A DNA stretch of 64,000 nucleotides, from NCBI GenBank assembly GCA_963668715.1, contig OY764960.1, positions 3,953,438-4,017,437 on the forward strand, given 5' to 3'. The notes under the pieces were generated by a model. That model saw only the letters and a list, made by a program, of their open reading frames with translations. It did no database searches and was not told the origin of the DNA. Source of the DNA: Bacteroidales bacterium. Its GTDB lineage: Bacteria > Bacteroidota > Bacteroidia > Bacteroidales > VadinHA17. A program made the position numbers and the translations under genes. Shown in pieces: positions 2,947 through 24,625 of this stretch. Within the stretch, counting starts at the first letter, position 1, and the number at the start of each line of letters is the position of its first letter.

Positions 2947-2948
2947 AA

Positions 2949-4044: not shown

Positions 4045-4121
4045 ACTCTATGTTTTGTGTGTCGTTCTACCATTGGCTATAACGTGAGTCTGTACAAATA
4101 CTGTTTTATCACATAAATTTA

Positions 4122-4449
4122 TCAATTTCTACTGTTTGTCAGCGGATTTGAAGCAACTAATTTTAGATGGCACAAAAAGAGAATATCCTTATTTGACGGG
4201 AAATAATCCTTTAAAGCAAGGCTTATAATGAGTCTTAGGTCTGAAATTATAAGAAAACAGTACTCCCTGAGGAGTCTGATCAGCTTTTGTGCTCCCATAA
4301 TTGAGATACAACGGCAGATATTATACCCGGTAAACATAAGTCCGACTTCACCCATGACTTTCTCCCTGGTTCTTACAAGGGTATAAGTGAAGCCTTGTTG
4401 CCGTTTCATTGTGCCAAACATATGCTCCGTTATTTGTTGCCGTAATCTG
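4122..4449 (-). pseudogene. C-terminal part of the IS1182 transposase, split off by IS21
   Basis: 'LRQQITEHMFGTMKRQQGFTYTLVR...' matches the C-terminus of 20965..22527. Confidence 0.9.
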
Positions 4450-4581
4450 TGCATATTCCTGCGATTTCGGACACTAAATCCCGCTGAAAGCGGACAGTTG
4501 TTCCCGTTCAAAACGGACACCTGATCCCGACGAAAACGGACACTTTTCACATCGTTCATTTTCGTTTATTATTTTCTAAAA

Positions 4582-5316
4582 TTAATCATTTTTATATTTC
4601 TCTCTTAACGAGTCTCCATCGAGCTCTATTCTATGAGAACTATGCACTAATCTATCAAGGATCGCGTCAGCGATCGTAGGTTCTCCAATAACATCATACC
4701 AGCTTTTAACCGGAAGCTGTGATGTAATTATCGTTGACCTTTTACCATGCCGGTCTTCGAGTAACTCAAGCAAGAACAGCCTCTGGTTGTTATCTAATGG
4801 TTTAAGCCCGAAGTCATCAAGGATCAACAGGTCCAGTTTCTCTATCCTGTTTATTTCGCTTATATAACTGCCATCTGCCTTAGCCATTTTTAGTTGATCG
4901 AACAGTTTTGAGCAGTTACGGTAATATACTTTATATCCCTGCTGACAGGCCTGATGACCCAAAGCAGAAGCCAAAAAGCTTTTACCCAGTCCTGTGTATC
5001 CGGATATGATGATGCTTTGTTTTCTTTTGATCCATTCACAGGACGATAAACGCAGCATCTGTACTTTATCCAGTTTTCTTTTAGCGATGTAATCTATTTG
5101 TTCCATGCTCGCCTGGTAGCGGAACCTGGCGTTTTTTATTAGTCGATCCAGTCGTCGATTATATCGATCATCCCATTCTGCCTGGACAAGATGAGCAATA
5201 ACTTCATCTATGGTAAAATCTTTACTCATTCCTGATTCCTGCATTTTCCGATAGACTCTTGAGAACCCGCTCAGTCGCATCTCCTCAAGTTTCTGCATTG
5301 TTGCTGTTTGATTCAT
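4582..5316 (-). CDS. istB: IS21 helper ATPase IstB
   Basis: Walker A GYTGLGKS, Walker B LLILDDFG, TSQLP...W...IADAILDRLVH. Confidence 0.95.
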   Translation of the reverse strand: MNQTATMQKLEEMRLSGFSRVYRKMQESGMSKDFTIDEVIAHLVQAEWDDRYNRRLDRLIKNARFRYQASMEQIDYIAKRKLDKVQMLRLSSCEWIKRKQSIIISGYTGLGKSFLASALGHQACQQGYKVYYRNCSKLFDQLKMAKADGSYISEINRIEKLDLLILDDFGLKPLDNNQRLFLLELLEDRHGKRSTIITSQLPVKSWYDVIGEPTIADAILDRLVHSSHRIELDGDSLREKYKND

Positions 5317-5337
5317 AATTTTCTGCTATTAAATTTA

Positions 5338-6885
5338 TTATTTGTAATTCTCTTTTCCTCGTATGTTATGATGAAAAGGAAGTTTTATTTCTATTTGGTT
5401 TTCCTGTTCTGTTTTGTGAGTGTTATTTTTCAGGCAGTTCTTGATAAACTTGAATGAGATACAGTTGTACTCAACAGCCCTGCTGCATACTATTTCCAGA
5501 TCTTCCGGTTTATACCCTTTACTTAGGTTCAATACTCCCATGCAAGATTTAAATGCTTGCTGAGGATGTTCTTTGCTGTCCAACAGGAGTCCTATAAAAA
5601 TCTCTACGGAACCGCCCATCTTTTTGGCCCATTTTACAAAACGATCTGTATTCCAACCATCAACAAACTGATGTTCTGCAGGCATATGACCTTTCTCTGT
5701 TGTATAACCATAAGGCCTGCGGTCTCTTTTATGAAGCGCGATACGAACACTATCCTTGTATATCTCAACATTCCTGTTCGTGTAAATGGTTTTGACCTTC
5801 TGTCCGGTATATTGATAGGGCACGCTGTAATAATGCTTGTCCTCTCTTAGGTAAACATGGTGGTGAAATTCAACTTTAGACACCTGGTAACGACGGATCT
5901 CATATCGCTCTTTGGGTAGTGGTCGCAATTCATTCTTTTCTATTTCATTAAATAACTCTCTTCGACTAATATCCCGGCGCTGGAACGGAGCGTTATTTAT
6001 CTCTTCAAGCTCTTCCCGGATAGCTTCATTTAACTCTCCCAGGGAAAAGAACGTCTGGTTTCTTAGCTTAGCAAAAATGCGTTGATAGACAATGCGTACC
6101 GCATTTTCAACCAAAGATTTATCCTTTGGTTTTAAAGGACGGGTAGGAAGAACAACTGTACCATAATGCCGGGCAAGATCATCATAAGTCTCATTTAATA
6201 AGGGTTCATAATTACATGCCTTGTGAACAGCTGACTTCAAATTATCCGGGCATATCCCCCGGGTGACACCTCCATAATAACGCCAGGCATTCTCATTGGC
6301 CCAGATCCAGTCTTCAAGCTTCTGACTTTTTACTCCTTCCACATAAATCAACTGACTGGCACCAAGTATCGTAATAAATATTTCTGCCGGTTTGACCTCT
6401 CCTGTATCCGGATCAACATAATGCATCTTTTTGCCTGTAAAATCTGCATATGTCAGATCTCCGGCTTTGTGCTCTATATGCATTCCCGCTTTCAGCTTGC
6501 TCTCCCACATGCGATAATGATGACAGAACCTGGAGTAACTAAACCCTTCAGGGTTACCTTCCTTGTATTCCTCCCAAAGCAAATAGAGCGTTACGCCAAC
6601 CCGGGCAAGCTCTTTTTCATAATAAGGGAATTCATTGGATAATTCTTCATAAAGCGGATTGACTATCTTATTTCGCTTTTCAAAGACTTCTGTAAGTTCT
6701 ATGTCGTTCATTTCCAAAACATCCTGGTAGGTTAACCCGGAACGCTTATATTCTGCCAGGTACTCCCCAACACTGGTTTTGCTGACCTGGGTGGCCTCTG
6801 CAATCTGCCGGATGCTAAATCGTAATTCCTGACTAAGTCGTAATATCTCTCTTATCTTTTCCACGTTGGTCCTTTTTCTTGGCAT
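5338..6885 (-). CDS. istA: IS21 transposase IstA (start taken at MPRKRT)
   Basis: HTH N-terminus, 'YADFTG', 'PDNLKSAV', 'PKDKSLVE' rve/DDE motifs. Confidence 0.95.
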   Translation of the reverse strand: MPRKRTNVEKIREILRLSQELRFSIRQIAEATQVSKTSVGEYLAEYKRSGLTYQDVLEMNDIELTEVFEKRNKIVNPLYEELSNEFPYYEKELARVGVTLYLLWEEYKEGNPEGFSYSRFCHHYRMWESKLKAGMHIEHKAGDLTYADFTGKKMHYVDPDTGEVKPAEIFITILGASQLIYVEGVKSQKLEDWIWANENAWRYYGGVTRGICPDNLKSAVHKACNYEPLLNETYDDLARHYGTVVLPTRPLKPKDKSLVENAVRIVYQRIFAKLRNQTFFSLGELNEAIREELEEINNAPFQRRDISRRELFNEIEKNELRPLPKERYEIRRYQVSKVEFHHHVYLREDKHYYSVPYQYTGQKVKTIYTNRNVEIYKDSVRIALHKRDRRPYGYTTEKGHMPAEHQFVDGWNTDRFVKWAKKMGGSVEIFIGLLLDSKEHPQQAFKSCMGVLNLSKGYKPEDLEIVCSRAVEYNCISFKFIKNCLKNNTHKTEQENQIEIKLPFHHNIRGKENYK

Positions 6886-7128
6886 CTGTATTCTCTTGTT
6901 GGTTAATAAAGCCAACAGAGATACCGATATCCCGTGGAAAATGAATGATGTGTATGAAAGTGTCCGTTTTCAGCAAGAATCACCGTCCGCTTTCAAAAGG
7001 GGCGGCTGTCCGCTTTCCGCAGGAATCCGTGTCCGTTTTCAACAAGAATTGCTGTCCGCTTTCCGCAGGAATCCGTGTCCGCTTTCCGCAAGAATGAGTG
7101 TCCGTTTTGCGCGAGAATATGCAATCTG

Positions 7129-8372
7129 TAATAATCAGGATTGTCATTCACTCTTTGTGCATTGGCTTCAATGATATCAGCATATTCACTGCGGTCAATG
7201 TACCTTCCGTTGGCTCTGCATACAGTGCAAAGACTCCTGTTTCTACAGTTCCTGCAGTCGGGCGTAGTATATCTCTTAAACCGATATGCAGATTTCTTCT
7301 TATTCTTTCTGTCTCTGTGATTATGCCAACGTCCGTTGGTCTTCATAATGCTTCCTCCGGGACAGGTATAAAAATCATTCTTTTTATCATAGGTAAAACT
7401 ACTGACAGGATATAGTCCTGTATTTTTTGTTGATGGCTTCTTTGGAGAGACGTATGTAATAATATTATGTAAGCTGCATTCTTTCAATTGCTCGCCTGTG
7501 TGATACCCCTTATCGGACAGTACTGTCATAGTATCAACATCAAGAAGTTCTTTTGTACTTACCGCCACCGGAGCCAGTGCATGGGAATCATTCACATCTC
7601 CCGTGTCATATTCCAGCATCATTTTGTGCTTTGAATCTGATGCGGCCTGTATATTATAACCAACATTCACTATGTTCCTGTGTAATACAACGGCTTTTGA
7701 ATCAGGGTCTGTTGTTGATATCTGTTCCTGTCCGCTTTCGATCAGGTCCGCTTGTATATTTTGATACTCTGATCTCTTAAGCCTGCGTTCTGTAAGTTTC
7801 TTTTCAATGTCTTTCTTATCCTGCTCATTATCATTGGCATCCAGCAGTTCTTCATATTCACTGATCTGTTTGTCAATATATTCAATATGCCTTTTCAGTT
7901 TTGCTTCATTGAAATTATTCTTTAACGAATTGCTCCCTCTTATTTTGAAAGAATCAATTGCAACGTTTTCACCTTCTACAAGATCCCATTCCTTAAGCAG
8001 GCAAACGAATCGCCGGAATATCTCCCTGAATGCTTTTGCATTTTCTTTTCTGAAGTTAGCAATGGTCTTATATTTGGGTCTCAGTCCCGTGAGCAGCCAC
8101 ATGGCTTCGATATTTGTTTGAGCCTCTCTCTCAAGTTTTCTGGATGACCGTATTCCATACCTGTATCCATACAGGTACAGCTTAAGCAAGACTGAAGGAT
8201 GATAAGGCGGCCTCCCTTGTTCTTCACAGTTGACGTGTGCAAATCCAAAGCTTTCCAGGTCAATAACATCAACAAAAGCATCAACCACACGAACAAATGA
8301 ATCGGCAGCTATTGCATTCTCCAGGCAGAACATTAACACCTGATCCCTGTTTTCTCCCTGTTTGTGTTGGAT
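7129..8372 (-). pseudogene. N-terminal and central part of the IS1182 transposase; the start ATG of the intact copy is ATC here
   Basis: GRPPYHP...YGYRYGIRSSRKLERE (DUF772) and DDE motifs; truncated by IS21. Confidence 0.9.
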
Positions 8373-8474
8373 TGCAGTGTGTATTTGTTGAATACAAGAT
8401 ACTTAAAGTATGATCAAAGATTAAATATCGAATGAATTGGTTATCAACAAAACAGTGGGTTTTTGCACAGTCTG

Positions 8475-8740
8475 ACGGTCATCGGTATGATTCAGTAGGT
8501 GGCAACGGGCTTCAGACCGTTGTGGCGCGCTTTTTGCCTTTACCACCCAGCGTTCACGCCGGGACAGTTCACCCGTCATAATACTGTTCACTTTTCTGAA
8601 CGTTAAGTTAGTTAATTTAAGTTCACGGAATACTAGCCGTGATTATGTTTAAAATCTTCTATTCATTATACTCTTCACCCCGATAAATGCGGCTGCAAAA
8701 ACGCGTGCCAAACCTATTGATTATACCGCATGTTGTGCAT
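8475..8740 (-). repeat. attC-like site 3 (long, ~265 bp; core split by IS1182)
   Basis: (A)AC-N8-GTATG; arms CGGTATGATTCAGTAGGTGGCA / TGCCAAACCTATTGATTATACCG; TATAC-N5-GTTGTGCATAG at 8732. Confidence 0.75.
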
Positions 8741-8774
8741 AGTGATTTTTTAGAAAACATTTATCATATCATTC

Positions 8775-10079
8775 CACTAGTGTCCACTAAACTTTAAATA
8801 TAAGCTTTATAATTGTTTACAAATATGTCATTTACATCAAAATACCCGTGTCCACGATTTGAATTAATACTTTTGAATTCTAATGTGAATTTTAAAGTAT
8901 GCACACAGGAAAGTATGTATTTGCACAACTTGTCGAATTTCTTCCGCAAAAGTTTTTTCAGCGAATAGTTTTGGAATATCAAGGTGATAAATATGTGAAA
9001 TCCTTTAGCTGCTGGAACCAGTTGCTTGTAATGATGTTTGGTCAGCTTGCCGGTTGCGGTAGCCTTCGAGAACTTGTTAGCATTCTCGAAGCTCACAACA
9101 GAAAATCCTATCATCTTGGTTTTGGAAAATCCGGAATAACCCGAAGCAATCTTTCGAAAGCTAATGAGAATCGGGATTATCATATTTTCGAAAAGTTTGC
9201 CTATAAAATGATCGATATTGCTCAGAAAAAACGACTCACCAGGGAGTTTGAAATTGAGGGTCGATTTTATGCTTTTGACTCCACTACCATTGACTTGTGC
9301 TTGAGTTTTTTCTGGTGGGCAAAATTCAGAAAAACGAAGTCTGGAATTAAAATGCATACGCTTTTTGATGTTGCAACTCAGATCCCAGCTTTCATTCATA
9401 TTACAGAAGCCAAAGTCCATGATATGAATATCATGGAGGAGATCCCTTATGAGCCTAATGCTTATTATATCTTCGATAGAGGCTACTTTGATCTTGCCAG
9501 ATTGTACCAAATTGATCTTATTAAATCCAATTTTGTTATTCGGCAAAGAGGAAAACTTCAATATAAAATCATCCAGGGAGATGAGCTTCTTGAAGAACCT
9601 GACAATATCCTTTTTGATCAGGTAATAAGGCTGACCGGTCCATTGACTAAACAGAAATATCCGGGAAAACTTCGTCGTATAGTTTTTTATAGTCAAGAGC
9701 ACCGCAGAACCTTTACATATCTTTCGAACAATCTTGAAATTAAAGCATCTCAAATAGCTCTGCTTTATAAAAACAGGTGGCAAGTAGAACTCTTCTTCAA
9801 ATGGATCAAGCAACATCTGCATATCACATCATTTTGGGGTATCTCTGAGAATGCCGTTCGCATACAAATCTATAGTGCAATCACCGCCTACTGTCTGGTT
9901 GCTATTGTTGAAAATGAGCTTAAACTCGGCAAAACGACATTTGAAGTACTCCGAATTTTGAGTGCTTCGCTTCTGGATAAAACCGCTATTAAGGAACTTT
10001 TCATACATGATAAAAACGCAAACAATATGGACAATAGTTATGATTTACAATTACCTTTAATTTTTAGTGGACACTAGTG
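8775..10079 (+). mobile_element. IS4-family element (1305 bp), 17-bp TIR, 9-bp target duplication
   Basis: CACTAGTGTCCACTAAA / TTTAGTGGACACTAGTG; ATATCATTC at 8766-8774 and 10080-10088. Confidence 0.95.
8899..10077 (+). CDS. IS4-family transposase (DUF4372 + DDE_Tnp_1)
   Basis: MHTGKYVFAQL N-terminus; DSTTIDL, FDRGY, 'YKNRWQVELFFKWIKQHL' motifs. Confidence 0.95.
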   Translation: MHTGKYVFAQLVEFLPQKFFQRIVLEYQGDKYVKSFSCWNQLLVMMFGQLAGCGSLRELVSILEAHNRKSYHLGFGKSGITRSNLSKANENRDYHIFEKFAYKMIDIAQKKRLTREFEIEGRFYAFDSTTIDLCLSFFWWAKFRKTKSGIKMHTLFDVATQIPAFIHITEAKVHDMNIMEEIPYEPNAYYIFDRGYFDLARLYQIDLIKSNFVIRQRGKLQYKIIQGDELLEEPDNILFDQVIRLTGPLTKQKYPGKLRRIVFYSQEHRRTFTYLSNNLEIKASQIALLYKNRWQVELFFKWIKQHLHITSFWGISENAVRIQIYSAITAYCLVAIVENELKLGKTTFEVLRILSASLLDKTAIKELFIHDKNANNMDNSYDLQLPLIFSGH

Positions 10080-10624
10080 ATATCATTCATAAAATATAAT
10101 GCTAGGACTGTAAATGGTAAACTCAATATCATTAAAATAACAAAATTTTTGACTTTCGAAGGTTTAGAATAATCTAAGTTCTTTTCAACTATCTTCTTTT
10201 CAATGAATTCGGTCATTGCATCATTACCGAAGAATCTTTGATCCTGTTGATTTGATATAAAGGATATTTTTTTTGTTCCTCCAGTTTCTTTTTCGTTGTA
10301 TTTTATTGTTACAAACCAAGGACTGCTAAAATCGAACTTTGATATCCACTGTATATCCTTATAGTCGACAAAAGTTTCTCGTCCAAAATCCCTTATTAAT
10401 ATTCCTTGTTCTGTTGTTTCTATATTTTTTAATCTGAATGGCATTTGTATCAGAAAAATGGATATCCAGACAGTTACTGTGAGCATACCTTTTGCAAATC
10501 CTAGAGATTCAGGAGATCCTTCTGTCCATGACATATATATTCCAAAAAAAGCCCCGGCAAGCATAAAAATGGGAAAGATGAATTTAAAAATAAAGGTTAG
10601 AGAAGAACTTTTATACATGATCAT
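10064..10624 (-). CDS. Hypothetical membrane protein (cassette C4); last codons replaced by IS4 sequence
   Basis: Three hydrophobic segments; the native end NDMINVF* can be rebuilt from 8750-8774. Confidence 0.75.
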   Translation of the reverse strand: MIMYKSSSLTFIFKFIFPIFMLAGAFFGIYMSWTEGSPESLGFAKGMLTVTVWISIFLIQMPFRLKNIETTEQGILIRDFGRETFVDYKDIQWISKFDFSSPWFVTIKYNEKETGGTKKISFISNQQDQRFFGNDAMTEFIEKKIVEKNLDYSKPSKVKNFVILMILSLPFTVLALYFMNDITSVH

Positions 10625-10681
10625 AGTTTCTATTTAATTTATTAATTGGCTCTTAATCTACAACGGTTACTCAACCATTAT

Positions 10682-10815
10682 GCACAACGGTTGGTGTATG
10701 AGGCGTTGGGCATTTCGAAGCACTTCACTGTCAAACCGCTAATATGTTTATTAAATGTACTCATGCTTCAATTAACCACTTGCTGCCCAATGACTTATAC
10801 ACATTGTTGTGTGCC
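10682..10815 (-). repeat. attC-like site 4 (intact)
   Basis: GCACAAC-N7-GTATG; arms GTGTATGAGGCGTTGGGCA / TGCCCAATGACTTATACAC; TATAC-N5-GTTGTGTGCC at 10806. Confidence 0.85.
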
Positions 10816-10888
10816 CGTGCTTTATTTTCCTCAGTCAGTCTGTGCGATGGGGCAGACATACTCTTTGGCAAGTTTTGGTTTGCGGTTG

Positions 10889-10919
10889 GCTTGTGTGACT
10901 TGCCAATGTGTATGGATGC
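10889..10919. repeat. 31-bp direct repeat, copy 1
   Basis: GCTTGTGTGACTTGCCAATGTGTATGGATGC, identical at 15509-15539. Confidence 0.9.
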
Positions 10920-10926
10920 TTTCAGG

Positions 10927-12159
10927 CTAAATTCTGAAGTCATTCGGTTCAAATTCAAGTACTTTATCAATGATGTCAATATTTTGTTTTCTTTTTTTCA
11001 ACCATCGTTCTTTCCAATAATCAACTAATTCGGTTTTTGTATAATTGTTAAAATGTGGTTGTTTTGTCTCTCCATTTAAAAAAGCCTTGTATTCTTTTGC
11101 TAATGGTACAAAATAAATATTTCTTCTAAATGAGTGTTTTAATAAAAAATCACTATCAAATCCCAAAAGATCGCCTGAAGTACGAATTACACGCATTACC
11201 CAACTTGGTCCATCCCCAAATTTATGACCTACATTGATTCCTTTTGATTTTAGAAGTTGAATCATTAGTAGTATAGTTTCTTCGCTTAAATGTAACGTTC
11301 CAAAACCCTTTGTTTTCCCAATTGGTAGATATAGTAATTCATCACCAAACTTCATTCGATTGTATTGGGAGCTATTTCCATATAAACTTGTTGTAAAAAT
11401 ACCTACAAGTTTATTTGCGACTCTTTTTTCTGTAAGGGTAACTTTCCCTTGATATTTTTTACGGTAGATTTCTCTTATTTCATTGGATGCAAGAATGTAA
11501 GAAATGAGTTTCCCCCCTAATAAATAATTGTATGGTGGTAGAGCTCCAATCACGTAAGCATCTAATGTGTATATCAGATTTTTTGTCCTAGTGTTTTTAT
11601 TCCAACCTATAAAGTCATCTCTTTCAGGAATATGAATAATAGGGCTTCCTAATGCAGCAATTCCAATGACAGGTTTATTTGGTAATGCTCTGTCCCGTAT
11701 TATGAGTTTAATTCTTCTTCCGACATATTCGCTGTAAGGCGAACTCCAATAATATCTTAAAATCCTGAATAATCTATGCTGTTGCCTTGTTTCACAAACT
11801 TCTATAATTGGGTCGATATTTGAACTTAACACGTCTGTTCCTACAGCAAGGTTTTTTCTTGCAAATTCAATGTTATTATCAATCCATTTTTTATGTTTCA
11901 AAATAATTTCATCTCGTTTAAAAGACATTGATTTCTTTATAGTTTCTTTATCGTAACTTTCAGGAGGAATTAAAGTCGGATAAGCATTTTTCGTAGTTGG
12001 CAGTTTAAATTTCCACTTTAATCTTTCCAAGTCACGTCTAATACTATTAATTACCTGTTCTTCAAGTGCTGTTTCCTTTTTCTTGTTTGAAACTGCTTTT
12101 GGTATCACATTTTTAGATGTGATTTCTTTAGGTAAAATAAGTTCTGTTGATTCTTTCAT
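10927..12159 (-). CDS. DUF4338 / Druantia DruA-like protein
   Basis: 'YVGRRIKLIIRD...GIAALGSP', 'AYVIGALPPYNYLLGGKLI', 'TTSLYG.SSQYNR', 'IGKTKGFG' motifs recalled from the DUF4338 family. Confidence 0.75.
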   Translation of the reverse strand: MKESTELILPKEITSKNVIPKAVSNKKKETALEEQVINSIRRDLERLKWKFKLPTTKNAYPTLIPPESYDKETIKKSMSFKRDEIILKHKKWIDNNIEFARKNLAVGTDVLSSNIDPIIEVCETRQQHRLFRILRYYWSSPYSEYVGRRIKLIIRDRALPNKPVIGIAALGSPIIHIPERDDFIGWNKNTRTKNLIYTLDAYVIGALPPYNYLLGGKLISYILASNEIREIYRKKYQGKVTLTEKRVANKLVGIFTTSLYGNSSQYNRMKFGDELLYLPIGKTKGFGTLHLSEETILLMIQLLKSKGINVGHKFGDGPSWVMRVIRTSGDLLGFDSDFLLKHSFRRNIYFVPLAKEYKAFLNGETKQPHFNNYTKTELVDYWKERWLKKRKQNIDIIDKVLEFEPNDFRI

Positions 12160-12160
12160 T

Positions 12161-14212: not shown

Positions 14213-15362
14213 TTCTATATCTTATGTTAGTTAAATTTTGACCTAAGTGTTTCATTCTTAATATTTTTTCCTTCTCATCTTTTGTAAGTTTCTGTGTAAT
14301 TCCTTCAAAAAGTATATCCTGTAAAATATCCATTTCAAGACCGTTCACTTTTGCAAAATCATGAGCTTTCTGGACACACATTGGAAAATCAGGAATAGGG
14401 AAACCGGGTTGAGCATCTTTTGTCAGTTGCCCAATTATTTTTTCGGCATCGTCAAGTTGCCATTCAGCAATATCAACTGGCCACACTGGGTCGAAGGGTC
14501 TATCCCCAAACTTCACCAAAAACATTTTTCCAATAGCTTGATAACGATACGTTCCATTTTCATCTGGCTGACTTGTTTCAAGTGTGTCAAGCCAAGTTCT
14601 ATCAAAATTATAGCAATCAGCCTCAATATCATCAGGCACTTGGACATAACAGGGATATGGCTTATGTAATGCTCCTTCCAACTCAAGAGCAACAGAAAGT
14701 CTACTTAAAACCGCACTTTGTTTAGCAACTCCAACCATTGAAACTGAAATGTTTTTCTTCTTGTGGGTATTGTAGGCTTCTCTTATTAATTGGTCAATTA
14801 AAGGGAATACAGTTAGTTTAAACGATTTTGTTCTTAACATTCCCTCTCTGACAATAATTGTATCCGAACCCCATTCACGATATTTCATTAAATCATATAG
14901 AACAGCCCATTCAACAATATCCCTGTAAACCCTCACAGCACCTGTACTCTTTCCGGGTTCTTCAATTCCTTTTAGGAGATAGGATAAATCAAGAACACTC
15001 ATTGTTAAATCTTGACAAAGCTTTCTTAATGGTTCAACTAATAATGGACTACCGTGATTTGCTCGTTCATTAAAATCAGCAGCTTTCGAATTTCCTGCGA
15101 TAGCATCTAAAGCGCATTGATTTCCTCTTGAATCAACGACACGTACTAATTCAATAACCGCTGGATTAAAGTAAAGTCGGTTATCACCTCCATCAGAAGA
15201 TACAAAAGAAACGGCATTAACAGAATATGGTCTAATTGGTTTTACGTCATTCTTAATACGTCTTGCATATTCTCTGAATTTTTGCAAAATAGGGTCCTCA
15301 TTTTTGTATGCATCAAAGACTCTTTTTTTTATTTCAGTAAAGTTATCATCTGCTAATGCCAT
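14205..15362 (-). CDS. NurA-domain nuclease
   Basis: 'FVSSDGG' and 'IIVREGML' catalytic-type motifs, 'VGVAKQS', C-terminal 'GFPIP...KAHDFAKV'; overlaps the HerA gene by 8 bp. Confidence 0.8.
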   Translation of the reverse strand: MALADDNFTEIKKRVFDAYKNEDPILQKFREYARRIKNDVKPIRPYSVNAVSFVSSDGGDNRLYFNPAVIELVRVVDSRGNQCALDAIAGNSKAADFNERANHGSPLLVEPLRKLCQDLTMSVLDLSYLLKGIEEPGKSTGAVRVYRDIVEWAVLYDLMKYREWGSDTIIVREGMLRTKSFKLTVFPLIDQLIREAYNTHKKKNISVSMVGVAKQSAVLSRLSVALELEGALHKPYPCYVQVPDDIEADCYNFDRTWLDTLETSQPDENGTYRYQAIGKMFLVKFGDRPFDPVWPVDIAEWQLDDAEKIIGQLTKDAQPGFPIPDFPMCVQKAHDFAKVNGLEMDILQDILFEGITQKLTKDEKEKILRMKHLGQNLTNIRYRNA

Positions 15363-15508
15363 ATCTATTTTTTATTGTTTATAAGATTTTTCAAAGGTAA
15401 TAATATGAATTTTTCAATTTAGTTTTTTTATATTTTGATTTGTTTTAGTATTCAATCCGGGTTTCTTGCGTTGGCAAAGATTTGGCTCTTTTGCAAGCTG
15501 AAGCGTTT

Positions 15509-15539
15509 GCTTGTGTGACTTGCCAATGTGTATGGATGC
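15509..15539. repeat. 31-bp direct repeat, copy 2
   Basis: Identical to 10889-10919; lies just downstream of the gajB stop. Confidence 0.9.
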
Positions 15540-15560
15540 ATTGTGCTAGCATTGTGTTGA

Positions 15561-17213
15561 TTATTGTTTTTTCGTCTTATATCTTAATTTTTCAATATTG
15601 TTTAATAGTAAAAATTCCGAATCTCTACCTTGTCTCTTTATCATTTCATTATTGTGTCTTTCAGTACTAGAAATCAGGATACATCCTTTTCTTGCTCTTG
15701 TTAATCCAACATAATGTAAGTTTAAGTCTTGATTCCAATCTCCATAAACAGGATTATTAAAGTCATTATTCGGACCTGGTCTTTTATTTGGAAATACCCA
15801 TTCGTAAAGGTCAAGATGAATTACAACATCATATTCTAGCCCTTTTGATTTATGCAAAGTAAGTATGTTTACTTCATCATCATTCGCTGTTTGATATGAG
15901 TTAAGCTCAACCGAATTATTAAGTACAGAATCCAAAAGGTCGATGGACTCTTTACTTTCAAGATTTGGCGCAATTATTTTTGCGACATTGATAAATTCCT
16001 TTTTAAGCTCATCTAAATCAAGTGGTGAATGGTGTGAGATTTTTTCAATAGTTTCCTTGTATGTTTTCAGTTTTTTTAAATCCCTTGATGAAAATCTATC
16101 ATATGAAGTAAACACCTCTACAACATCAATAAATCTGTAGCCCTTATCGAAAACAAAGTAGAGTAAATTTGAAAATATTGCTGACCAAATATTTAAATTG
16201 AGGTCTAGCTCATTACTAACAAATAACCTATGTGGTGATTTTAAATTTTCATTTATTATGTCTGCGCTTCGATTTCCTCTTGTTAATATCGCTATTTGAT
16301 TTCTGTTTTTTACCTTAAAGATTTTCTGAATAGAATCTATTTTATCGTCAACCCATTTTGCGATGGATGTCTCATCACCATTTATCCTACTAAAGAAAAT
16401 TTGATTAATGTCTGTTTGAATTAGTTCAGTCTTTGGGTTTAATAAATAGTTCGAATAATTAATGATACTAGGATGGCATCTGTGGTTTTTATCAAGTTTA
16501 AAAAATTTAAAATTATCATCTGTTGTTAGTTCTTCTAAGTATTTTGAGTCTTTTCCCGAAAAAGCATATATTGATTGATTCAAGTCACCAACCGCAACTG
16601 CAACTATACCTAAATCGTTTATTTTCTTAAATATTTGGTGTTGCTCAAATCCTGAGTCTTGGTACTCATCTATGTAAATATGTTTGTATTTGGCTTTTAT
16701 ATATTTACGACAGGCAATTGAGTTTGTAAAAACATAGTCTGCAAAAACTCCAATTGTTTCAATAAGTATTATACCATTGCTAAAAAAAACACCTAAATCC
16801 TTTATCTTTTTTTTTTCAAGTTGTTCAAGAGTCAAATTTCTATCAACCCAATCAAATCTATCTTTATCTTCATCAGAAAGAGAAGAGTGTTTTATAATCT
16901 TTATCTCATTATTAGGAATTCCGAATATATGTTTTGCAAAAGGAACAATTATCTCTGATAAATTGAATTTGTCAATTGTACCAAAAAAAGAGCCTAAAGG
17001 TTTTTCTCCATTTGACAAGCTTCTGTTTTTTAATTCATTACTAGCTTTATTGGTGTAGGATATTGCAACCACACCTTGATGGTCGTGTAAATCTTTTAGA
17101 TTATCTTTTATTTTCTTGGACAATACAAACGTCTTCCCACTTCCAGGAGCAGCAATGACAACAGAATTGCCATCATAATCAAGAATTAAATTTTGTTGGT
17201 CAGTCGGCTTCAT
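15561..17213 (-). CDS. gajB: UvrD-like helicase, Gabija GajB-like (start taken at MKPTDQQ)
   Basis: AAPGSGKT, YTNKA, IDEYQD, GDLNQSIY, TLHKSKGLEYD, YVGLTRAR; overlaps the OLD-nuclease gene. Confidence 0.8.
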   Translation of the reverse strand: MKPTDQQNLILDYDGNSVVIAAPGSGKTFVLSKKIKDNLKDLHDHQGVVAISYTNKASNELKNRSLSNGEKPLGSFFGTIDKFNLSEIIVPFAKHIFGIPNNEIKIIKHSSLSDEDKDRFDWVDRNLTLEQLEKKKIKDLGVFFSNGIILIETIGVFADYVFTNSIACRKYIKAKYKHIYIDEYQDSGFEQHQIFKKINDLGIVAVAVGDLNQSIYAFSGKDSKYLEELTTDDNFKFFKLDKNHRCHPSIINYSNYLLNPKTELIQTDINQIFFSRINGDETSIAKWVDDKIDSIQKIFKVKNRNQIAILTRGNRSADIINENLKSPHRLFVSNELDLNLNIWSAIFSNLLYFVFDKGYRFIDVVEVFTSYDRFSSRDLKKLKTYKETIEKISHHSPLDLDELKKEFINVAKIIAPNLESKESIDLLDSVLNNSVELNSYQTANDDEVNILTLHKSKGLEYDVVIHLDLYEWVFPNKRPGPNNDFNNPVYGDWNQDLNLHYVGLTRARKGCILISSTERHNNEMIKRQGRDSEFLLLNNIEKLRYKTKKQ

Positions 17214-18966
17214 TCTGAATTTTTTCAATTATGCTTTTGCATTCAAGAAGTGGTTTTGAAATTGGGTTATCTTTTAGTTTTGTAAGTGAGTTTTTATTGT
17301 TCTTTAGAAAATCAAACATAAAGGTTGCTTTTCTTTTTTGCATTGCCTCCACTATTTCTTCTTCCTCCAATTCAGGAAAGAAATCAATTATTTCTTTTTT
17401 TATAGGACTATTGAAGAAATCATTCTCTAAATCAATTTCTGATAAATACAAGCCGTAGTACTCAAGTTCCTCAATAACAGCATTTGCAGATTCCAAATTT
17501 TCCTTTGGTGGATTAGAATCACCTGACCATTTTAGGTTTGATTCATTCTCCAATAGAATTTTTTCTGTTTCATCATCAGGATTGAAAAACTCTTTATAAT
17601 AGGAAATACATCTTTGAATACCTGCAAAACGATGTTTTTCTTTTTTAGGTACTTTAAATATATCATTGTCTGTTCTAAGTACCCAATCAATTTCTAGGCT
17701 ATTTAATATTTGAATGTATGTTGAAAATCCTATTCCATCCACCATAAGAACACTGATATTTAGTCTATCTAAATCAATTCCTATTTGTGTCGATAATGTT
17801 TTATAGAATAGTTCTTCTGATGGTCCCTCAATTAACAAAACAGCATCTGAAAAGAAGGCTTCTGATGTAATAATACTCTTACGATAACCAAAATCAACAA
17901 ATGCATCATCTATAATTTTTGAACAACCATTTGATGCTGCTTTTGTAGCGTCTTTTTTATTTAATAAACGAACTATTGAATTTGGGCTAAATTCAGAAGT
18001 TATTTGTGATGAGTGAGAAGTCAATAATACTTGACCATTTAGAGAGGAATTAAGATAATCAGCTAATTTTCTTTGTTGATGTGGGTGTAAATGTGCTTCT
18101 GGCTCTTCAATACAAAATATTGTAACTTCTGTCAAGCTTTCTTCAGTTATTCCATTTCTTGAAGTCCATAAAGCTAAATATATCTGATTCAAACGACCAT
18201 CTCCACCAATAACAACATTCTCTCCATTACTTTTTGATGCAATTGCTACATTTTTTACAAAGCTATCTGCATTAGATGTACTGGCATCAAAAAGTACTTC
18301 TTGTTTTTTATGATGTAAAGACAACTTAGAAAGTTCGTTGTTGATTGTATTAGTAGCATTTGCAATAAAATTTAGTTTTGGGATTTTTTCATCGACTTTT
18401 TTTAAATCATCTTGAATTTCAGAGAATAACTTGTCGTCAGAGTCAGTTTGCTCATCAGTTCTATCTTCTTTCGCAATCTGAAATAAATAATTTCTTTCGT
18501 TTCGAATATAATTATTAAAATCTCTCTTGCTACTTATATATTTTACATTAAGAACTTTTCTGTAGTATCTATCTTCAATTTCTTCAATATCTTCATATGA
18601 TTTTCCAGCAAACAGTTTATAAGATTTAGCACCTGTCGATTTTTCCCTAATACCTTTATAAACCAAAACTAACATATCATCATCACTAATCTTCCCTTTC
18701 AATTTCGCCACAACGCAATCATCAACAACATCTTCAAAAAACAGTGTAATTTCAAATTCGTTTGTTTCTTCATATGCATAAAAGTCAGAATCTCTAGGCT
18801 CAATATCATAGTCAGATAAACTTCTATCTAATAAAAGTCTAATCGCCCACATTAAATTTGTTTTACCAACATCATTTGAGCCAATGACTAAAGATTTCTT
18901 GGTTAAATTTATTTTAGCCTTTTTGAAATTCCGAAAACCCTTAAGATTTAAAGTCTTTAGTATCAT
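17200..18966 (-). CDS. gajA: OLD-family ATP-dependent nuclease (ABC ATPase + TOPRIM), Gabija GajA-like
   Basis: GFRNF, GSNDVGKTN, IEEPEAHLHP, TSHS; TOPRIM 'LIEGPSE' and 'TDND'. Confidence 0.85.
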   Translation of the reverse strand: MILKTLNLKGFRNFKKAKINLTKKSLVIGSNDVGKTNLMWAIRLLLDRSLSDYDIEPRDSDFYAYEETNEFEITLFFEDVVDDCVVAKLKGKISDDDMLVLVYKGIREKSTGAKSYKLFAGKSYEDIEEIEDRYYRKVLNVKYISSKRDFNNYIRNERNYLFQIAKEDRTDEQTDSDDKLFSEIQDDLKKVDEKIPKLNFIANATNTINNELSKLSLHHKKQEVLFDASTSNADSFVKNVAIASKSNGENVVIGGDGRLNQIYLALWTSRNGITEESLTEVTIFCIEEPEAHLHPHQQRKLADYLNSSLNGQVLLTSHSSQITSEFSPNSIVRLLNKKDATKAASNGCSKIIDDAFVDFGYRKSIITSEAFFSDAVLLIEGPSEELFYKTLSTQIGIDLDRLNISVLMVDGIGFSTYIQILNSLEIDWVLRTDNDIFKVPKKEKHRFAGIQRCISYYKEFFNPDDETEKILLENESNLKWSGDSNPPKENLESANAVIEELEYYGLYLSEIDLENDFFNSPIKKEIIDFFPELEEEEIVEAMQKRKATFMFDFLKNNKNSLTKLKDNPISKPLLECKSIIEKIQNEAD

Positions 18967-19119
18967 GATTTATTATGTTTTAAAGTCTTTATGTTCATTT
19001 TAATTATCCTCTTCATTGGGTAGGTAAAAAATAGCTCTTTTGTTTTTTTAATTTGCATGTGTGTCGGCAAAAAACAAATGTGCTATTTGTGCTGTGGGCT
19101 GTTTTAGCATGGCACACAA

Positions 19120-19469
19120 TGCAGCGCTAAACGAAGTTCCGCACTGAGGGCGAAGGCTGCCGAGCTTGCTCGAGCAGACTGTAAAGCCCGCAAGGGCGGG
19201 ACCAAATTGCGTTTAGCGTCCATGTTCTGACACGTTTTGGCTCGATGCCCAGGTAAAGCTGTTTATTATCATAAAGTTACTAAAGCAATTTGGTTTAGCG
19301 ACTTGTTCTTGCACGTTTGGGCTCGATGCCCGGATAAAGCTGTTTATTATCATAAAGTTACAAAAGCAATTTGGTTTAGCGCTGCATTCGAGCACATTTT
19401 CCAAAAGACCGGGACCCCGAGAATTCGGGGGTAGGGATTTTGGTCAGCTTTAGCTGAATGTGCTCGAAC
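19120..19469. repeat. Non-coding palindromic module family B, copy 3, with an internal 81-82 bp tandem duplication
   Basis: TGCAGCGCTAAAC (19120) / GTTTAGCGCTGCA (19374); duplicated unit across 19211-19381; TTCGAGCACATT / AATGTGCTCGAA inverted pair across 19388-19468. Confidence 0.9.
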
Positions 19470-19597
19470 GTACACATGTATGAAATGTTTGGGGTTTGCG
19501 GGCTCGTCTCTGTCAACCGTTACAAAAGCGGATGCGGAGGAGAATATTTCGAGTAAACACTAAGCCCCCAAATATTTTATACATGATGTTATGGTGC
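19463..19597 (-). repeat. attC-like site 5
   Basis: CGAAC-N8-GTATG; arms CATGTATGAAATGTTTGGGG / CCCCAAATATTTTATACATG; TATAC-N5-GTTATGGTGC at 19588. Confidence 0.85.
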
Positions 19598-19607
19598 GTT
19601 TGTCTTG

Positions 19608-20324
19608 TCATTCCAGTTTTATGTCTTTAATTTTCAAGTCTTTCTTCTGACGGTTTACTCTTGCTTGAAACGAACGTCCTAAATTCAAGTCCTTTTTTAC
19701 GATTCTCAAATTCGCTTTGTCTTGATGATACTTTCTAAATTCCTGTTTTAGTTTATCGTCTTTGAGTTCATTTGGTCCACCGTCAACTTGGATATACTCA
19801 ATTTTTTCAATGTTAATATTATTCAACTCTATAAATCGGTCAACGATTACTGAAAAAGTATTTGGTTGTCTATGGTCAACGTTTAGTTCTTCGTATTTCG
19901 CAAGCTCTTTTGATTCTTGGCATTTAACCTGTCCTTCTTTTGAGTGTTCTTCAAAATAGTCAAGTTTAACACTCCTTAAATCGTCTTGAATTGCTTGTCT
20001 GCACGCTTCTCGGAATTTTGTAAAGTCTGTCTTTGGTGCGTTTATTCGTTTTGTGTACGAAAAAAATTCTGTCGAACCGTCAATTCTTACCAACTCAAAG
20101 GATTTCGTGTTATACTGAACTTTTGCAACTCTTACTTTTTCAATCCCGACCCCAATTTTTTCTTTTACTCTTGGGTGAGTTTCAAGCAAGTTCATAATGT
20201 CATTAAAGTCGTTCGTATTCAATTCTTCTCCAAAGTCGTAAGCGTTCAAAATAGTCTTGAAGTGAGTTAAAGCGTCCTTTTTAGTAGCAAATTCAATTTC
20301 TCCTATTTTGATTGGTTTTCTCAT
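19608..20324 (-). CDS. DCL/DUF3223-like protein with an HNH-like C-terminal motif (cassette C6)
   Basis: N-terminal 'F.TKKDALTHFK.IL', 'FELVRIDGSTEFFSY..', then 'KCQES...LNVDHRQP'. Confidence 0.6.
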   Translation of the reverse strand: MRKPIKIGEIEFATKKDALTHFKTILNAYDFGEELNTNDFNDIMNLLETHPRVKEKIGVGIEKVRVAKVQYNTKSFELVRIDGSTEFFSYTKRINAPKTDFTKFREACRQAIQDDLRSVKLDYFEEHSKEGQVKCQESKELAKYEELNVDHRQPNTFSVIVDRFIELNNINIEKIEYIQVDGGPNELKDDKLKQEFRKYHQDKANLRIVKKDLNLGRSFQARVNRQKKDLKIKDIKLE

Positions 20325-20330
20325 AAAAAA

Positions 20331-20894
20331 CTATTGTTTAAAGATGTCTTTTAACTCGCTGAAATCATTAATGTTTACCCGTATAAAAAAATTGTTCATT
20401 ATTGAATGAAGCATTTTAACGTAGTCATTAAAAACAATTTTAAGTTCTTCAAATTCTTCATCTGTTGCAATAATGATATCTTGAATAGATTTTGGGTGAA
20501 CTAATTTATCTCTCTTTTTCTTGATAATTTTCAGGGATTTATATTTTGAGTCAAGATAGTTTTGAATGATTTCTTCTTTGTCCCAAGTTTTACATATTTG
20601 TTTAAATGTTTTCTTGAATTTGTCTTCAAATGAATGTTTATCAGAATACCCTTCATATGAGTCAAGTTGATTTAAACCAAATATATCCGATTCAACTAAC
20701 GAAAAAAAGCCTTTTAAAGACGCTCTAAATTGTGTATTAAATTTTTCTTTATCACCCTTGAAGGTCTCGGTAATATCTAATAGCAGTTCGTAGTCCTTCC
20801 GTAATATGTTATGTCTTCTTTGATATTCAGTCAATGCAAGACTTGCCTTCCTAAACTCTTCTTTATCTTTGTATTCCTTTGAATGTTCAGTCAT
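20331..20894 (-). CDS. Hypothetical protein with HEPN-like RxxxxH motif (cassette C6)
   Basis: Helical protein with 'KRDKLVHPK' near the C-terminus. Confidence 0.55.
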   Translation of the reverse strand: MTEHSKEYKDKEEFRKASLALTEYQRRHNILRKDYELLLDITETFKGDKEKFNTQFRASLKGFFSLVESDIFGLNQLDSYEGYSDKHSFEDKFKKTFKQICKTWDKEEIIQNYLDSKYKSLKIIKKKRDKLVHPKSIQDIIIATDEEFEELKIVFNDYVKMLHSIMNNFFIRVNINDFSELKDIFKQ

Positions 20895-20927
20895 TTTGTT
20901 GGTTGTCTTTTAAATGCACCATAACGG

Positions 20928-22629
20928 GAGTCTGTGCAAAAACTGCTTTCATCACATAAATTTATCAATTTCTACTATTTGTAAGTGGTTTAAAAGCAAT
21001 TAATTTCAAATGGTAGCACAAATTATTTGACGGGAAATAATCCTTTAAAGCGAGGCTTATAAAGCATCTCAGGTCTGAAATTGTAAAAAAACAGTACTCC
21101 CTGAGGAGTCTGATCAGCTTTTGTGCTCCCATAATTGAGATACAACGGCAGATATTATACCCGGTAAACATAAGTCCGACTTCACCCATGACTTTCTCCC
21201 TGGTTCTTACAAGGGTATATGTGAAGCCTTGTTGCCGTTTCATTGTGCCAAACATATGCTCCGTTATTTGTTGTCGTAATCTGTAATAATCAGGATTGTC
21301 ATTCACTCTTTGTGCATTGGCTTCAATGATATCAGCATATTCACTGCGGTCAATGTACCTTCCGTTGGCTCTGCATACAGTGCAAAGACTCCTGTTTCTA
21401 CAGTCCCTGCAGCCAGGCGTAGTATATCTCTTAAACCGATATGCAGATTTCTTCTTATTCTTTCTGTCACTGTGATTATGCCAACGTCCGTTGGTCTTCA
21501 TAATGCTTCCTCCGGGACAGATATAAAAATCATTCTTTTTATCATAGGTAAAACTACTGACAGGATATAATCCTGCATCTTTTGTTGATGGCTTCTTTGG
21601 AGAGACGTATGTAATAATATTATGTAAGCTGCATTCTTTCAATTGCTCGCCTGTGTGATACCCCTTATCGGCAAGTACTGTCATAGTATCAACTTTAAGA
21701 AGTTCTTTTGTACTTACCGCCACCGGTGCCAGTGCATGGGAATCATTCACATCTCCTGTGTCATATTCCAGCATCATCTTGTGCTTTGAATCTGATGCGG
21801 CCTGTATATTATAACCAACATTCACTACTTTCCTGTGTAGTACAACGGCTTTTGAATCAGGGTCTGTTGTTGATATCTGTTCCTGTCCGCTTTCGATCAG
21901 GTCAGCTTGTATATTTTGATACTCTGATCTCTTAAGCCTGCGTTCTGTAAGTTTCTTTTCAATGTCTTTCTTATCCTGCTCATTGTCATTGGCATCCAGC
22001 AGTTCTTCATATTCACTGATCTGTTTGTCAATATATTCAATATGCCTTTTCAGTTTTGCTTCATTGAAATTATTCTTTAACGAATTGCTCCCTCTTATTT
22101 TGAAAGAATCAATTGCCACGTTTTCACCTTCTACAAGATCCCATTCCTTAAGCAGGCAAACGAATCGCCGGAATATCTCCCTGAATGCTTTTGCATTTTC
22201 TTTTCTGAAGTTAGCAATGGTCTTATATTTGGGTCTCAGTCCCGTGAGCAGCCACATAGCTTCGATATTGGTTTGAGCCTCTCTCTCAAGTTTTCTGGAT
22301 GACCGTATTCCATACCTGTAACCATACAGGTACAGCTTAAGCAGGACCGAAGGATGGTAAGGAGGCCTCCCTTGTTCTTCACATTTTACATGATCAAATC
22401 CAAAGCTTCCCAGGTCAACTACATCAACAAAGGCATCAACCACACGGACAAATGAATCGGCAGCTATTGCATTCTCCAGGCAGAACATTAGCATTTGGTT
22501 CCTGTTTTCTCCCTGTTTGTGTTGCATTACAGTGTTTATTTGTTGAATACAAGATACTTAAAGTATGATCAAAAATTAAATATCGAATGAATTGGTTATC
22601 AACAAAACAGTAGGTTTTTGCACAGTCTG
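20928..22629 (-). mobile_element. IS1182-family element copy 2 (intact, 1702 bp), 4-bp target duplication ACGG
   Basis: GAGTCTGTGCAAAAAC / GTTTTTGCACAGTCTG ends; ACGG at 20924-20927 and 22630-22633. Confidence 0.9.
20965..22527 (-). CDS. IS1182-family transposase
   Basis: DUF772 'GRPPYHP', 'IDSFKI', 'ADKGY', 'EHMFGTMKR' motifs. Confidence 0.95.
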   Translation of the reverse strand: MQHKQGENRNQMLMFCLENAIAADSFVRVVDAFVDVVDLGSFGFDHVKCEEQGRPPYHPSVLLKLYLYGYRYGIRSSRKLEREAQTNIEAMWLLTGLRPKYKTIANFRKENAKAFREIFRRFVCLLKEWDLVEGENVAIDSFKIRGSNSLKNNFNEAKLKRHIEYIDKQISEYEELLDANDNEQDKKDIEKKLTERRLKRSEYQNIQADLIESGQEQISTTDPDSKAVVLHRKVVNVGYNIQAASDSKHKMMLEYDTGDVNDSHALAPVAVSTKELLKVDTMTVLADKGYHTGEQLKECSLHNIITYVSPKKPSTKDAGLYPVSSFTYDKKNDFYICPGGSIMKTNGRWHNHSDRKNKKKSAYRFKRYTTPGCRDCRNRSLCTVCRANGRYIDRSEYADIIEANAQRVNDNPDYYRLRQQITEHMFGTMKRQQGFTYTLVRTREKVMGEVGLMFTGYNICRCISIMGAQKLIRLLREYCFFTISDLRCFISLALKDYFPSNNLCYHLKLIAFKPLTNSRN

Positions 22630-22760
22630 ACGGATGGCAATATGCGGAGGCCGGGATTTCGAAGCTCCAACTTGTCAAGCCGTTGCGAATTTGAGTAAAT
22701 GTACAAAAGTTCAAATTACCCACAACCCCCGGCTTACGTATATTGCGTGTTAGGCATTGG
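22630..22760 (-). repeat. attC-like site 6 (core split by IS1182)
   Basis: (A)AC-N8-ATATG; arms GCAATATGCGGAGGCCGGG / CCCGGCTTACGTATATTGC; N5-GTTAGGCA at 22749. Confidence 0.85.
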
Positions 22761-24517: not shown

Positions 24518-24625
24518 GGGCTTATGCCTAACATTTGGCTATATGTATACATATATTTTTACTATATCTCCTGTTTTAATTACATATACCCCTTAATTTT
24601 TAGAGTGTATATGTATACATAATAC
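24518..24625 (-). other. Candidate attI-like site at the head of the array
   Basis: GCCTAAC-N8-ATATG half-site with no partner hairpin arm or inverse core; TATATGTATACATA repeated at ~24540 and ~24607. Confidence 0.45.

Follow-up and report, generated by a model that had tools for sequence, protein, structure and literature searches.

An IS1182-family insertion sequence that very probably homes to the core of attC-like cassette sites in Bacteroidota

Cassette arrays are gene-capture devices in which the recombination sites are the sole parts that must remain intact for cassettes to move. A conventional transposon of the cut-and-paste type that homed to the crossover core of such sites would be a parasite of the cassette machinery, able to freeze cassette boundaries. 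Does such an element exist? The question is raised by a stretch of 64,000 nucleotides from a Bacteroidales bacterium (assembly GCA_963668715.1, contig OY764960.1, positions 3,953,438 to 4,017,437; here "the window," numbered from its first letter), which holds a cassette array with two copies of an IS1182-family insertion sequence (IS), W1 and W2, at the cores of cassette sites. The original prediction, made from the letters of the window, was that both copies are inserted at the same base of the core and that this IS lineage targets cassette sites. Here, we examined both copies, the sites that they occupy, and their relatives in the same genome, in other genomes, and in metagenomes. We consider it highly probable that the lineage is an IS1182-family DDE element of 1.70 to 1.71 kb that transposes site-specifically, and in one orientation, into the core of attC-like cassette sites in the integron-like arrays of Bacteroidota.

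The element has 16-bp terminal inverted repeats and a single transposase gene that encodes 520 to 523 amino acids. W2 (20928 to 22629, − strand) is intact, measures 1,702 bp, and has inverted repeats (GAGTCTGTGCAAAAAC and CAGACTGTGCAAAAAC) that match at 14 of 16 positions. Its transposase gene (20965 to 22527, − strand) is one open reading frame (ORF) of 520 amino acids whose product scores above the cutoff of the curated IS1182 model (NF033551; 337 bits versus 270), which bears out the predicted family; IS5 models score far below their own cutoffs. Its Pfam domains are PF05598 (N-terminal DUF772; 67.5 bits), PF13751 (46 bits), and PF01609 (45.7 bits). W1 (4086 to 8474, − strand) is interrupted by a nested IS21-family element, without which it measures 1,710 bp and is 95.65% identical to W2 (the blastn alignment with W2 is in two pieces, 1 to 357 and 351 to 1702). 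The W1 transposase frame is broken into two − strand ORFs, 6993 to 8339 and 4122 to 4559, across which the Pfam domains DUF772, DDE_Tnp_1, and DDE_Tnp_1_6 are spread.

At its left junction, W1 follows ...ccattggctata-ACGT, with ACGT (4082 to 4085) overlapping the site-end AAC at 4081 to 4083, and starts with GAGTCTGTAC at 4086; at its right, it ends with GCACAGTCTG at 8474, followed by ACGG (8475 to 8478) and tcatcggtatg. W2 follows ...gcaccata-ACGG, with ACGG (20924 to 20927) at the site-end AAC of 20923 to 20925, starts with GAGTCTGTGC at 20928, and ends with the same GCACAGTCTG at 22629, followed by ACGG (22630 to 22633) and atggcaatatg. In short form, W1 reads ...GCTATA-ACGT-IS-ACGG-TCATCGGTATG and W2 reads ...CCATA-ACGG-IS-ACGG-ATGGCAATATG. 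The target duplication is perfect around W2, and the right copy beside W1 differs from the left one at its fourth base. These junctions agree exactly with insertion of both copies at the same base of the core. Moreover, the copies differ by 4.35%, represent two length subtypes, have unrelated neighboring cassettes, and lie in sites of approximately 261 and 123 nt, which supports the view that W1 and W2 arose, as predicted, by independent insertions.

What are the sites that they occupy? The sites were found by banded, wobble-aware alignment of arms followed by nhmmer, since exact 8-mer or 12/14 ungapped arm matching recovered almost nothing. The nhmmer profile, a model of 12 sites that all come from this genome, matches 28 sites across the 4.27-Mb genome; these form four clusters, one of which is the window array. 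Three sites of the window are unoccupied (all + strand): 3238 to 3361, which reads GCCTAAC-GG-TCA-CTTGTATG...CATATACAAAT-TGTTATAGCC, 10686 to 10808, and 19467 to 19590. Together with the reconstructed W2 site and others in the genome, they form one family of imperfect hairpins of 121 to 125 nt with the + strand pattern (GCC)TAAC-GK-[3-nt bulge]-L arm ... L arm-(A/C)T-GTTAxxG. The target sites are real structures, that is, imperfect palindromes conserved in structure: RNAalifold of the 12 aligned sites gives a stem of 19 bp, and 15 of the 19 pairs have compensatory changes. The IS insertion point lies within the paired AACGK/MTGTT stem, next to the conserved bulge. In 11 of the 12 aligned sites, the stem has G:T wobbles at two positions of the + strand, which are, as a result, C·A mismatches on the gene-sense strand; these conserved wobbles make the + strand fold better than the − strand (predicted fold of the site at 19455 to 19600, −55.6 versus −32.3 kcal/mol).

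The remainder of the W2 target site (22634 to 22751, + strand) yields a reconstructed whole site of 123 nt, in which the L arm CAATATGCGGAGGCCGGG pairs with CCCGGCTTACGTATATTG and the site end is CGT-GTTAGGC. Its nhmmer match (genome 3976067 to 3976192) begins at model position 8, directly after the IS, and the site is 89% identical to an unoccupied site at genome 2412722 to 2412843. The remainder of the W1 target site (8479 to 8734, + strand) belongs to a long variant of approximately 261 nt with GTT at 8732 to 8734; the L arm TCATCGGTATGATT pairs with ...GATTATACCG-CAT-GTT, and the predicted fold of the reconstructed empty site (−88.2 kcal/mol) has both arms paired. The site of one further genome copy (copy B, below) is also a long variant (approximately 240 nt), and the same arms are present in both.

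The cassette genes of the window are on the − strand, so that in gene sense the sites start with RYYYAAC and end with ...NCGT-TAGGC, like attC. Compared with RYYYAAC...GTTRRRY, the AAC and GTT of the site ends are invariant and GCCTAAC and GTTAGGC are common, while many ends, such as GTTATGG, GTTGTGT, and GTTACCA, fit RRRY only loosely. Read in this sense, a site ends with ...L' arm-spacer-NCGT^TAGGC, and the element would enter between the two T's of GTT and duplicate NCGT (ACGK on the + strand of the window). The transposase gene always points in the same direction as the cassette genes. A 4-bp staggered cut would be standard DDE chemistry, and bottom-strand transfer would then fall at A^AC, a single base away from the crossover point of canonical integrons.

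The remaining copies in the genome extend this pattern. By blastn, the genome has five full IS copies (A, 916882 to 918591; B, 1731427 to 1733128; C, 2397675 to 2399384; W1; and W2) and seven fragments. The transposase frame is intact in four of the five full copies, and W2 is 99.94% identical to copy B. At each of the 12 junctions, the same IS end, in one orientation, borders an R-box-like flank, (GCC)TAAC or a variant. AACG(G/T) precedes the IS at nine of the 12; the three decayed junctions (fragments p3, p5, and p1) read GCG, AATGT, and ACGA, respectively. On the opposite side, ACG(G/T/A) is followed by an L arm specific to the copy, and the flanks are otherwise unrelated: the L arms at A, B, C, W1, W2, and p1 (TTGACAATATC, TCAGCGGTATGG, TCAGCGGTATAT, TCATCGGTATGA, ATGGCAATATGC, and GCAGCTGTATGA, respectively) are all distinct. 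The original prediction had proposed a check of the flanks of all genomic copies and of relatives, and every genomic copy proved to lie at the same site position.

Would chance suffice? The genome contains 11,052 AACGK words and approximately 30 such sites. If approximately 11 junctions are taken as independent events at site cores, P is ∼6 × 10^−29, a value to be read with the rest of the site in place at only five to six of them. Within the window, the 18.4 kb of non-IS array DNA contains 99 ACGK words and 41 AACGK words, of which six AACGK words are at cores, and both copies (2/2) are at cores (P of ∼0.02). Approximately 15 unoccupied sites keep an AACGK core, which means that up to 12 of approximately 27 usable sites have been struck. 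Among 40 relatives, no orthologous empty junction was found, and the sites that the search did recover are paralogous.

Does the specificity belong to the lineage or to this genome? Relatives collected by transposase comprise 26 loci in species genomes (Bacteroidales, Lentimicrobium, Chitinophagaceae, and others) and 72 metagenome loci, at 36 to 84% identity. With the transposase gene setting the orientation, these loci read ...CATA-N5-RA-NCGT/CAGNCTGT...IS...ACAGACTS/NCGT-T-R-K-G-N3-M-A-T, where slashes mark the ends of the IS. Within the close clade, CGT^T is invariant across 31 unique left and 29 unique right flanks, and the stem positions are nearly free of information. Where flanks of at least 150 nt are available, at least 12 metagenome loci have a partner arm starting with AAC at a distance of 122 to 124 nt upstream, and two more have it at 128 to 129 nt; the partner arm was likewise found in Bacteroidales genome loci. 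When the related loci were scanned with a hidden Markov model (HMM) of the sites of this genome, 54 matches were obtained, and these share a single orientation with respect to the transposase gene. Of these, 32 begin at model position 8, at zero distance from the IS end, which is the truncation also seen where sites of this genome are occupied; the others are complete neighboring sites. The targeting predicted for the lineage therefore holds in relatives as well, given these 32 junctions and the invariant CGT^T. Independent insertions that share one position, one orientation, and the target duplication are spread across a deep clade, with transposases 36 to 100% identical.

Insertions at ACGG-like words unrelated to cassette sites, which the original prediction had named as evidence against targeting, were encountered marginally only. 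One copy (L024), on a complete related Bacteroidales chromosome (OY782677.1; G001 below), interrupts an open frame of at least 1,208 codons and has the duplication TCGT; it keeps CGTT...GGCAA on its right, and neither a CATA box nor a hairpin was detected on its left. In addition, a distant subclade, with ends CAGACTGTGCGAAAAC, uses another target, the palindromic TCGT^TGTGTCACTCAC, in both orientations. A miniature inverted-repeat transposable element (MITE) of approximately 110 bp with IS-like ends (CAGACTGTCTAAAAACTGTTTCGCG...) occupies several G001 sites (e.g., L035, G001 2168858 to 2168985), and G001 also contains a tandem of a full IS and a MITE in which each element is bordered by CCGT. 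Because the left flanks are nearly identical in the 40% clade, we considered whether the hairpin is carried by the IS itself. We rejected this for three reasons: G001 has unoccupied sites of the same family, the cassettes upstream end differently, and the hairpin is external to the inverted repeats and to the duplication.

Among 57 full copies drawn from Bacteroidota genomes and metagenomes, 45 have a perfect NCGT duplication, and its outer base matches at a rate of 0.79, against a chance expectation of 0.42. We read the duplication as 4 bp because, where the outer base is a rare one (T or G), it is the same at both ends. A duplication of 3 bp plus one base owned by the IS was rejected on the same matched T and G and because the phylogenetic signal of one side does not exceed that of the other (16 and 17 changes).

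Several observations weigh against straightforward, site-specific transposition with a fixed cut. The outer duplication base is mismatched in 12 of the 57 copies (21%), W1 and C included, so that a fixed 4-bp stagger is insufficient; most mismatches have C on the side of the transposase 5' end and A on the opposite, 3' side, and in this genome the identity of the base adjoining the IS goes with the IS subtype. The source of the mismatches may be a variable stagger, recombination between IS copies, or a base that was carried over. In G001, one subtype comprises 17 sites, of which 14 are occupied, and some flanks are found repeatedly (the flank aaaactgtgcccaac three times), from which we infer that part of the spread there would be duplication of IS-plus-cassette units and not fresh insertion; the recurrence suggests IS-driven duplication within the G001 arrays. 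No hairpin was demonstrable around the insertion point in some distant relatives (Chitinophagaceae-type contigs). Finally, recognition of sequence and recognition of structure are inseparable in these comparisons because each conserved target position is also conserved in the site family.

How else might the pattern have come about? One alternative is that there is no targeting: the element would insert at any ACGK-type word, and survivors would be seen only in harmless cassette junctions. Accessory cassette arrays do tolerate insertions, and one relative, the in-gene copy of G001, sits within a gene. Yet the window array offers its 99 ACGK and 41 AACGK words in nonessential DNA and both copies are at cores, all 12 junctions of the genome have the same site-end flank and orientation, and 32 junctions elsewhere are cut at the identical model position; selection is unable to fix one nucleotide position and one orientation. 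This alternative is close to refuted, and we regard it as extremely improbable. The copies might instead be nonindependent, through duplication of an ancestral IS-plus-site unit or through shuffling of flanks by IS-IS recombination, and such processes would be in keeping with the IS-plus-flank units that recur in G001 (aaaactgtgcccaac three times), with the common flank of fragments p6 and p7 in this genome, and with outer-base mismatches, which could stem from IS-IS recombination. Against this account, which we think very improbable, are the L arms at A, B, C, W1, W2, and p1, all of which differ, their unrelated far flanks, the different lengths of the W1 and W2 sites, and the 31 distinct left flanks of the close clade. 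It is also very improbable that the tyrosine recombinase of the array, in place of the transposase, puts an excised IS circle, with an NCGT junction, at the site core, so that a shared core mimics a duplication. The insertion point is no more than one base from the canonical integron crossover, a core swapped between partners would account for the occasional difference at the outer base, and GT plus the IS end (GT-CAGAC) loosely resembles GTTRRRY. The window array, however, has no recombinase gene beside it, and the genome has only one Xer/IntI-like candidate; the in-gene off-target copy has a matching, rare duplication (TCGT); rare outer T and G bases are matched on both sides, as gap repair predicts; and the element bears inverted repeats of the classical kind and encodes an intact DDE transposase.

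If transposase-driven, site-specific insertion is accepted, what does the transposase read? With roughly even confidence, we suggest that its main cue is the sequence of the duplex around the core, and in particular of the side where the cassette starts (CGTT-R-K-G-N3-M-A-T). Such a sequence half-site is favored by the off-target copy that lacks an upstream hairpin, by the IS-MITE tandem, and by the insertion point, which does not move as target length goes from 123 to approximately 261 nt. A structure-specific transposase, which would recognize the folded hairpin or cruciform, much as IS1272 targets hairpins, and would cut at the base of the R stem by the 3-nt bulge, is the main alternative, and one that we hold to be doubtful. 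For it speak the insertion of an IS1182-family member, IS1272/TnSha1, in hairpin stems (PMC4923244, PMC5678879), the L-arm sequences of the targets, which vary freely while pairing is retained, and the insertion point itself, inside the paired AACGK/MTGTT stem beside the conserved bulge. The same three observations that favor a half-site stand against it: no hairpin is detectable at the off-target copy; the second event of the tandem would have struck a half-site whose partner arm was already displaced, as both elements are bordered by CCGT; and the position of insertion is constant although the distance between arms ranges from 123 to approximately 261 nt. A further contrast with IS1272 is that this element duplicates its target without any deletion and always has a single orientation. 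Crude regular expressions for two half-site motifs matched the genome 140 and 78 times, mostly outside arrays and in all cases at unoccupied positions, and the combined pattern had zero matches, with site spacing differing by 1 nt; we did not rely on either.

Whether the sites are those of an integron depends in part on the recombinase. The head of the window array (24527 to 24635, − strand) is attI-like, reads GCCTAAC/ATTTGG..., and has neither a partner arm nor an IS. It is approximately 88% identical to genome 1736304 to 1736411, which lies right behind the stop codon of an Xer/IntI-like recombinase gene (genome 1736415 to 1737566; 383 amino acids) that is co-oriented with its own array; the window array thus has an attI-like head and no recombinase gene. 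The recombinase is below every curated cutoff (TIGR02249, 183.8 bits versus 265; NF040815, 213.9 bits versus 220), its TIGR02249 match, the best in this genome, is in two pieces that skip model positions 178 to 239, and the IntI-specific insertion is not present between KDR and HxLRH in its protein sequence. No IntI above the TIGR02249 cutoff was found in this genome or in G001. Both G001 arrays adjoin the two best IntI-model matches of that chromosome, and these recombinases are also below the IntI cutoff and without the insertion. An IntI integrase for these arrays was rejected in both genomes on the scores below cutoff and the missing hallmark domain. Of the predicted attC-like cassette sites, the likeness to attC stands, and the stricter reading as canonical integron attC does not, given the noncanonical bulge and the lack of an IntI with the hallmark domain. 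Because the recombinases score below the IntI cutoff and are without the IntI insertion, the sites are best described from sequence as attC-like sites of an integron-like system and not as canonical attC.

The cumulative GC skew of the genome is lowest near 1.60 Mb and highest near 3.75 Mb; cassette genes are co-oriented with replication in the arrays at 0.9, 2.4, and 3.95 Mb and not in the recombinase array at 1.71 to 1.74 Mb. Trios of adjacent tyrosine recombinase genes (recombinase-in-trio type) are present at genome 3939747 to 3942496, approximately 11 kb before the window, at 477454 to 480203, and at five other loci.

Other mobile elements also occur in the window array. The IS21-family element nested in W1 (4450 to 7123, − strand) encodes istA (5338 to 6915; 525 amino acids) and istB (4582 to 5316; 244 amino acids), with profile scores of 230 bits (NF033546) and 227 bits (PF01695). 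Its ends, TGCATATTC...GAATATGCA, are of the TG...CA type, it is flanked by the 5-bp duplication ATCTG (4445 to 4449 and 7124 to 7128), and it has 23-nt subterminal repeats at 6954 to 7120. ORFs with the sizes of istB and istA (244 and 525 amino acids) are also found at genome 1722476 to 1724809, adjoining an IS1182 fragment. In another site of the window (1315 to 1704, − strand), the core is taken by a group II intron fragment at 1315 to 1434, with the rest of the site at 1518 to 1704. The fragment (RF02001; 44.7 bits, − strand) ends ...GGCGCACAC/GGTAAATTGTATG, and nhmmer matches start at model position 8; its junction GGCGCACAC/GGTAAATTG is within a base or two of the IS core position. An Rfam scan of window positions 1 to 30000 returned this group II intron match only, with Rfam not including the IntegronFinder attC model. 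The same intron junction is seen at the site at genome 2414129 to 2414260, in the 2.41-Mb array. Noncoding repeat modules that are 81 to 97% identical (2927 to 3193 and 19098 to 19458; also 794 to 888) lie immediately left of two unoccupied sites.

What would such an element do to an array? Insertion keeps NCG-TTAGGC intact at the start of the next cassette and displaces the R' core from the L' arm by 1.7 kb (W2) or 4.4 kb (W1). Because of this displacement, it is plausible that an occupied junction is immobilized, with a predicted loss of folding and recombination. If site-specific insertion is correct, the IS has taken approximately 12 of approximately 27 sites with an intact or IS-occupied AACGK-type core in this genome and would be a major agent of decay, duplication, and fragmentation of noncanonical integron-like arrays in Bacteroidota. 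Its copies provide homology through which arrays can be rearranged and orphan arrays can form. They also put, at each occupied boundary, a gene with the same direction of reading as the cassettes, and the IS might exploit cassette transcription for its own expression. In practical terms, IS junctions would mark cassette boundaries in Bacteroidota arrays that standard integron tools may miss, since the sites are noncanonical and IntI is lacking. The near-absolute target specificity of a DDE transposase, by sequence or by fold, could be studied in a simple system of one protein, a 30-bp target, and natural stem variants.

How do these arrays and their IS compare with known systems? Like integron attC sites, including those of sedentary chromosomal integrons and clusters of attC sites lacking integron-integrases (CALINs), the sites have terminal AAC...GTT cores and an imperfect palindrome kept by covariation, and their homogeneity in length resembles that of Vibrio cholerae repeats (VCRs). 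The arrays also resemble integrons in their co-oriented cassettes and in the attI-like head by a tyrosine recombinase gene. In VCR and attCaadA7, extrahelical bases are on the R''/L'' arm, and the unpaired spacer is symmetric. In the sites studied here, by contrast, the extra bases form a 3-nt bulge on the R'-side arm, and the stem contains two conserved G:T wobbles. The system further differs from integrons in a recombinase that scores below the IntI cutoff, is without the IntI-specific insertion, and is encoded in the same orientation as the cassettes. IntegronFinder 2.0 reported almost no integrons in Bacteroidetes.

Within the IS1182 family, IS1272/TnSha1 of Staphylococcus inserts into hairpin stems with little primary sequence specificity, and further members target palindromes according to Siguier et al. 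(2015), as that work is cited there (PMC4923244, PMC5678879). IS1272 shares with the W1/W2 lineage its family and its inverted-repeat (hairpin) targets, but it makes no duplication, deletes part of the hairpin, has no primary sequence preference, and inserts in either orientation, whereas the W1/W2 lineage makes a 4-bp duplication, deletes nothing (the reconstructed W2 site is 123 nt, like unoccupied sites), and inserts at CGT^T in a fixed orientation. With the duplication present, the target complete, and the orientation fixed, the targeting mode of IS1272 does not describe this lineage.

The described attC-homing elements are IS1111-attC elements and group IIC-attC introns, which insert near the attC 5' end, antisense to cassettes (PMC3001079, PMC11187229). 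The introns, a monophyletic lineage within a family of mobile elements, share the homing to cassette sites, but they are retroelements that use RNA-DNA pairing, and published ones are in the bottom strand, antisense to cassettes, unlike the group II intron fragment of the window (1315 to 1434), which is on the cassette-sense strand. IS1111-attC elements (ISPa21, ISPst6, and ISKpn4; IS110/IS1111) are, like the W1/W2 lineage, cassette-site specialists with one fixed position and orientation at one site end (PMC11187229, PMC3001079). They have a DEDD transposase guided by a seekRNA, subterminal repeats, and no classical duplication; the W1/W2 lineage, in contrast, has a DDE transposase of the IS1182 family, terminal inverted repeats, and a 4-bp duplication and is found at the 3' (R') core, sense to cassettes. 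Membership in the IS1111-attC group was rejected on this difference in family, with fixed-position insertion at cassette sites common to both. A full-text literature search found no published description of IS1182 elements at attC sites. On balance, we lean slightly toward regarding this deep IS1182-family clade (36 to 100% transposase identity), together with its MITE derivatives, as a third, apparently undescribed class of mobile elements specialized on cassette sites, after IS1111-attC elements and group IIC-attC introns.

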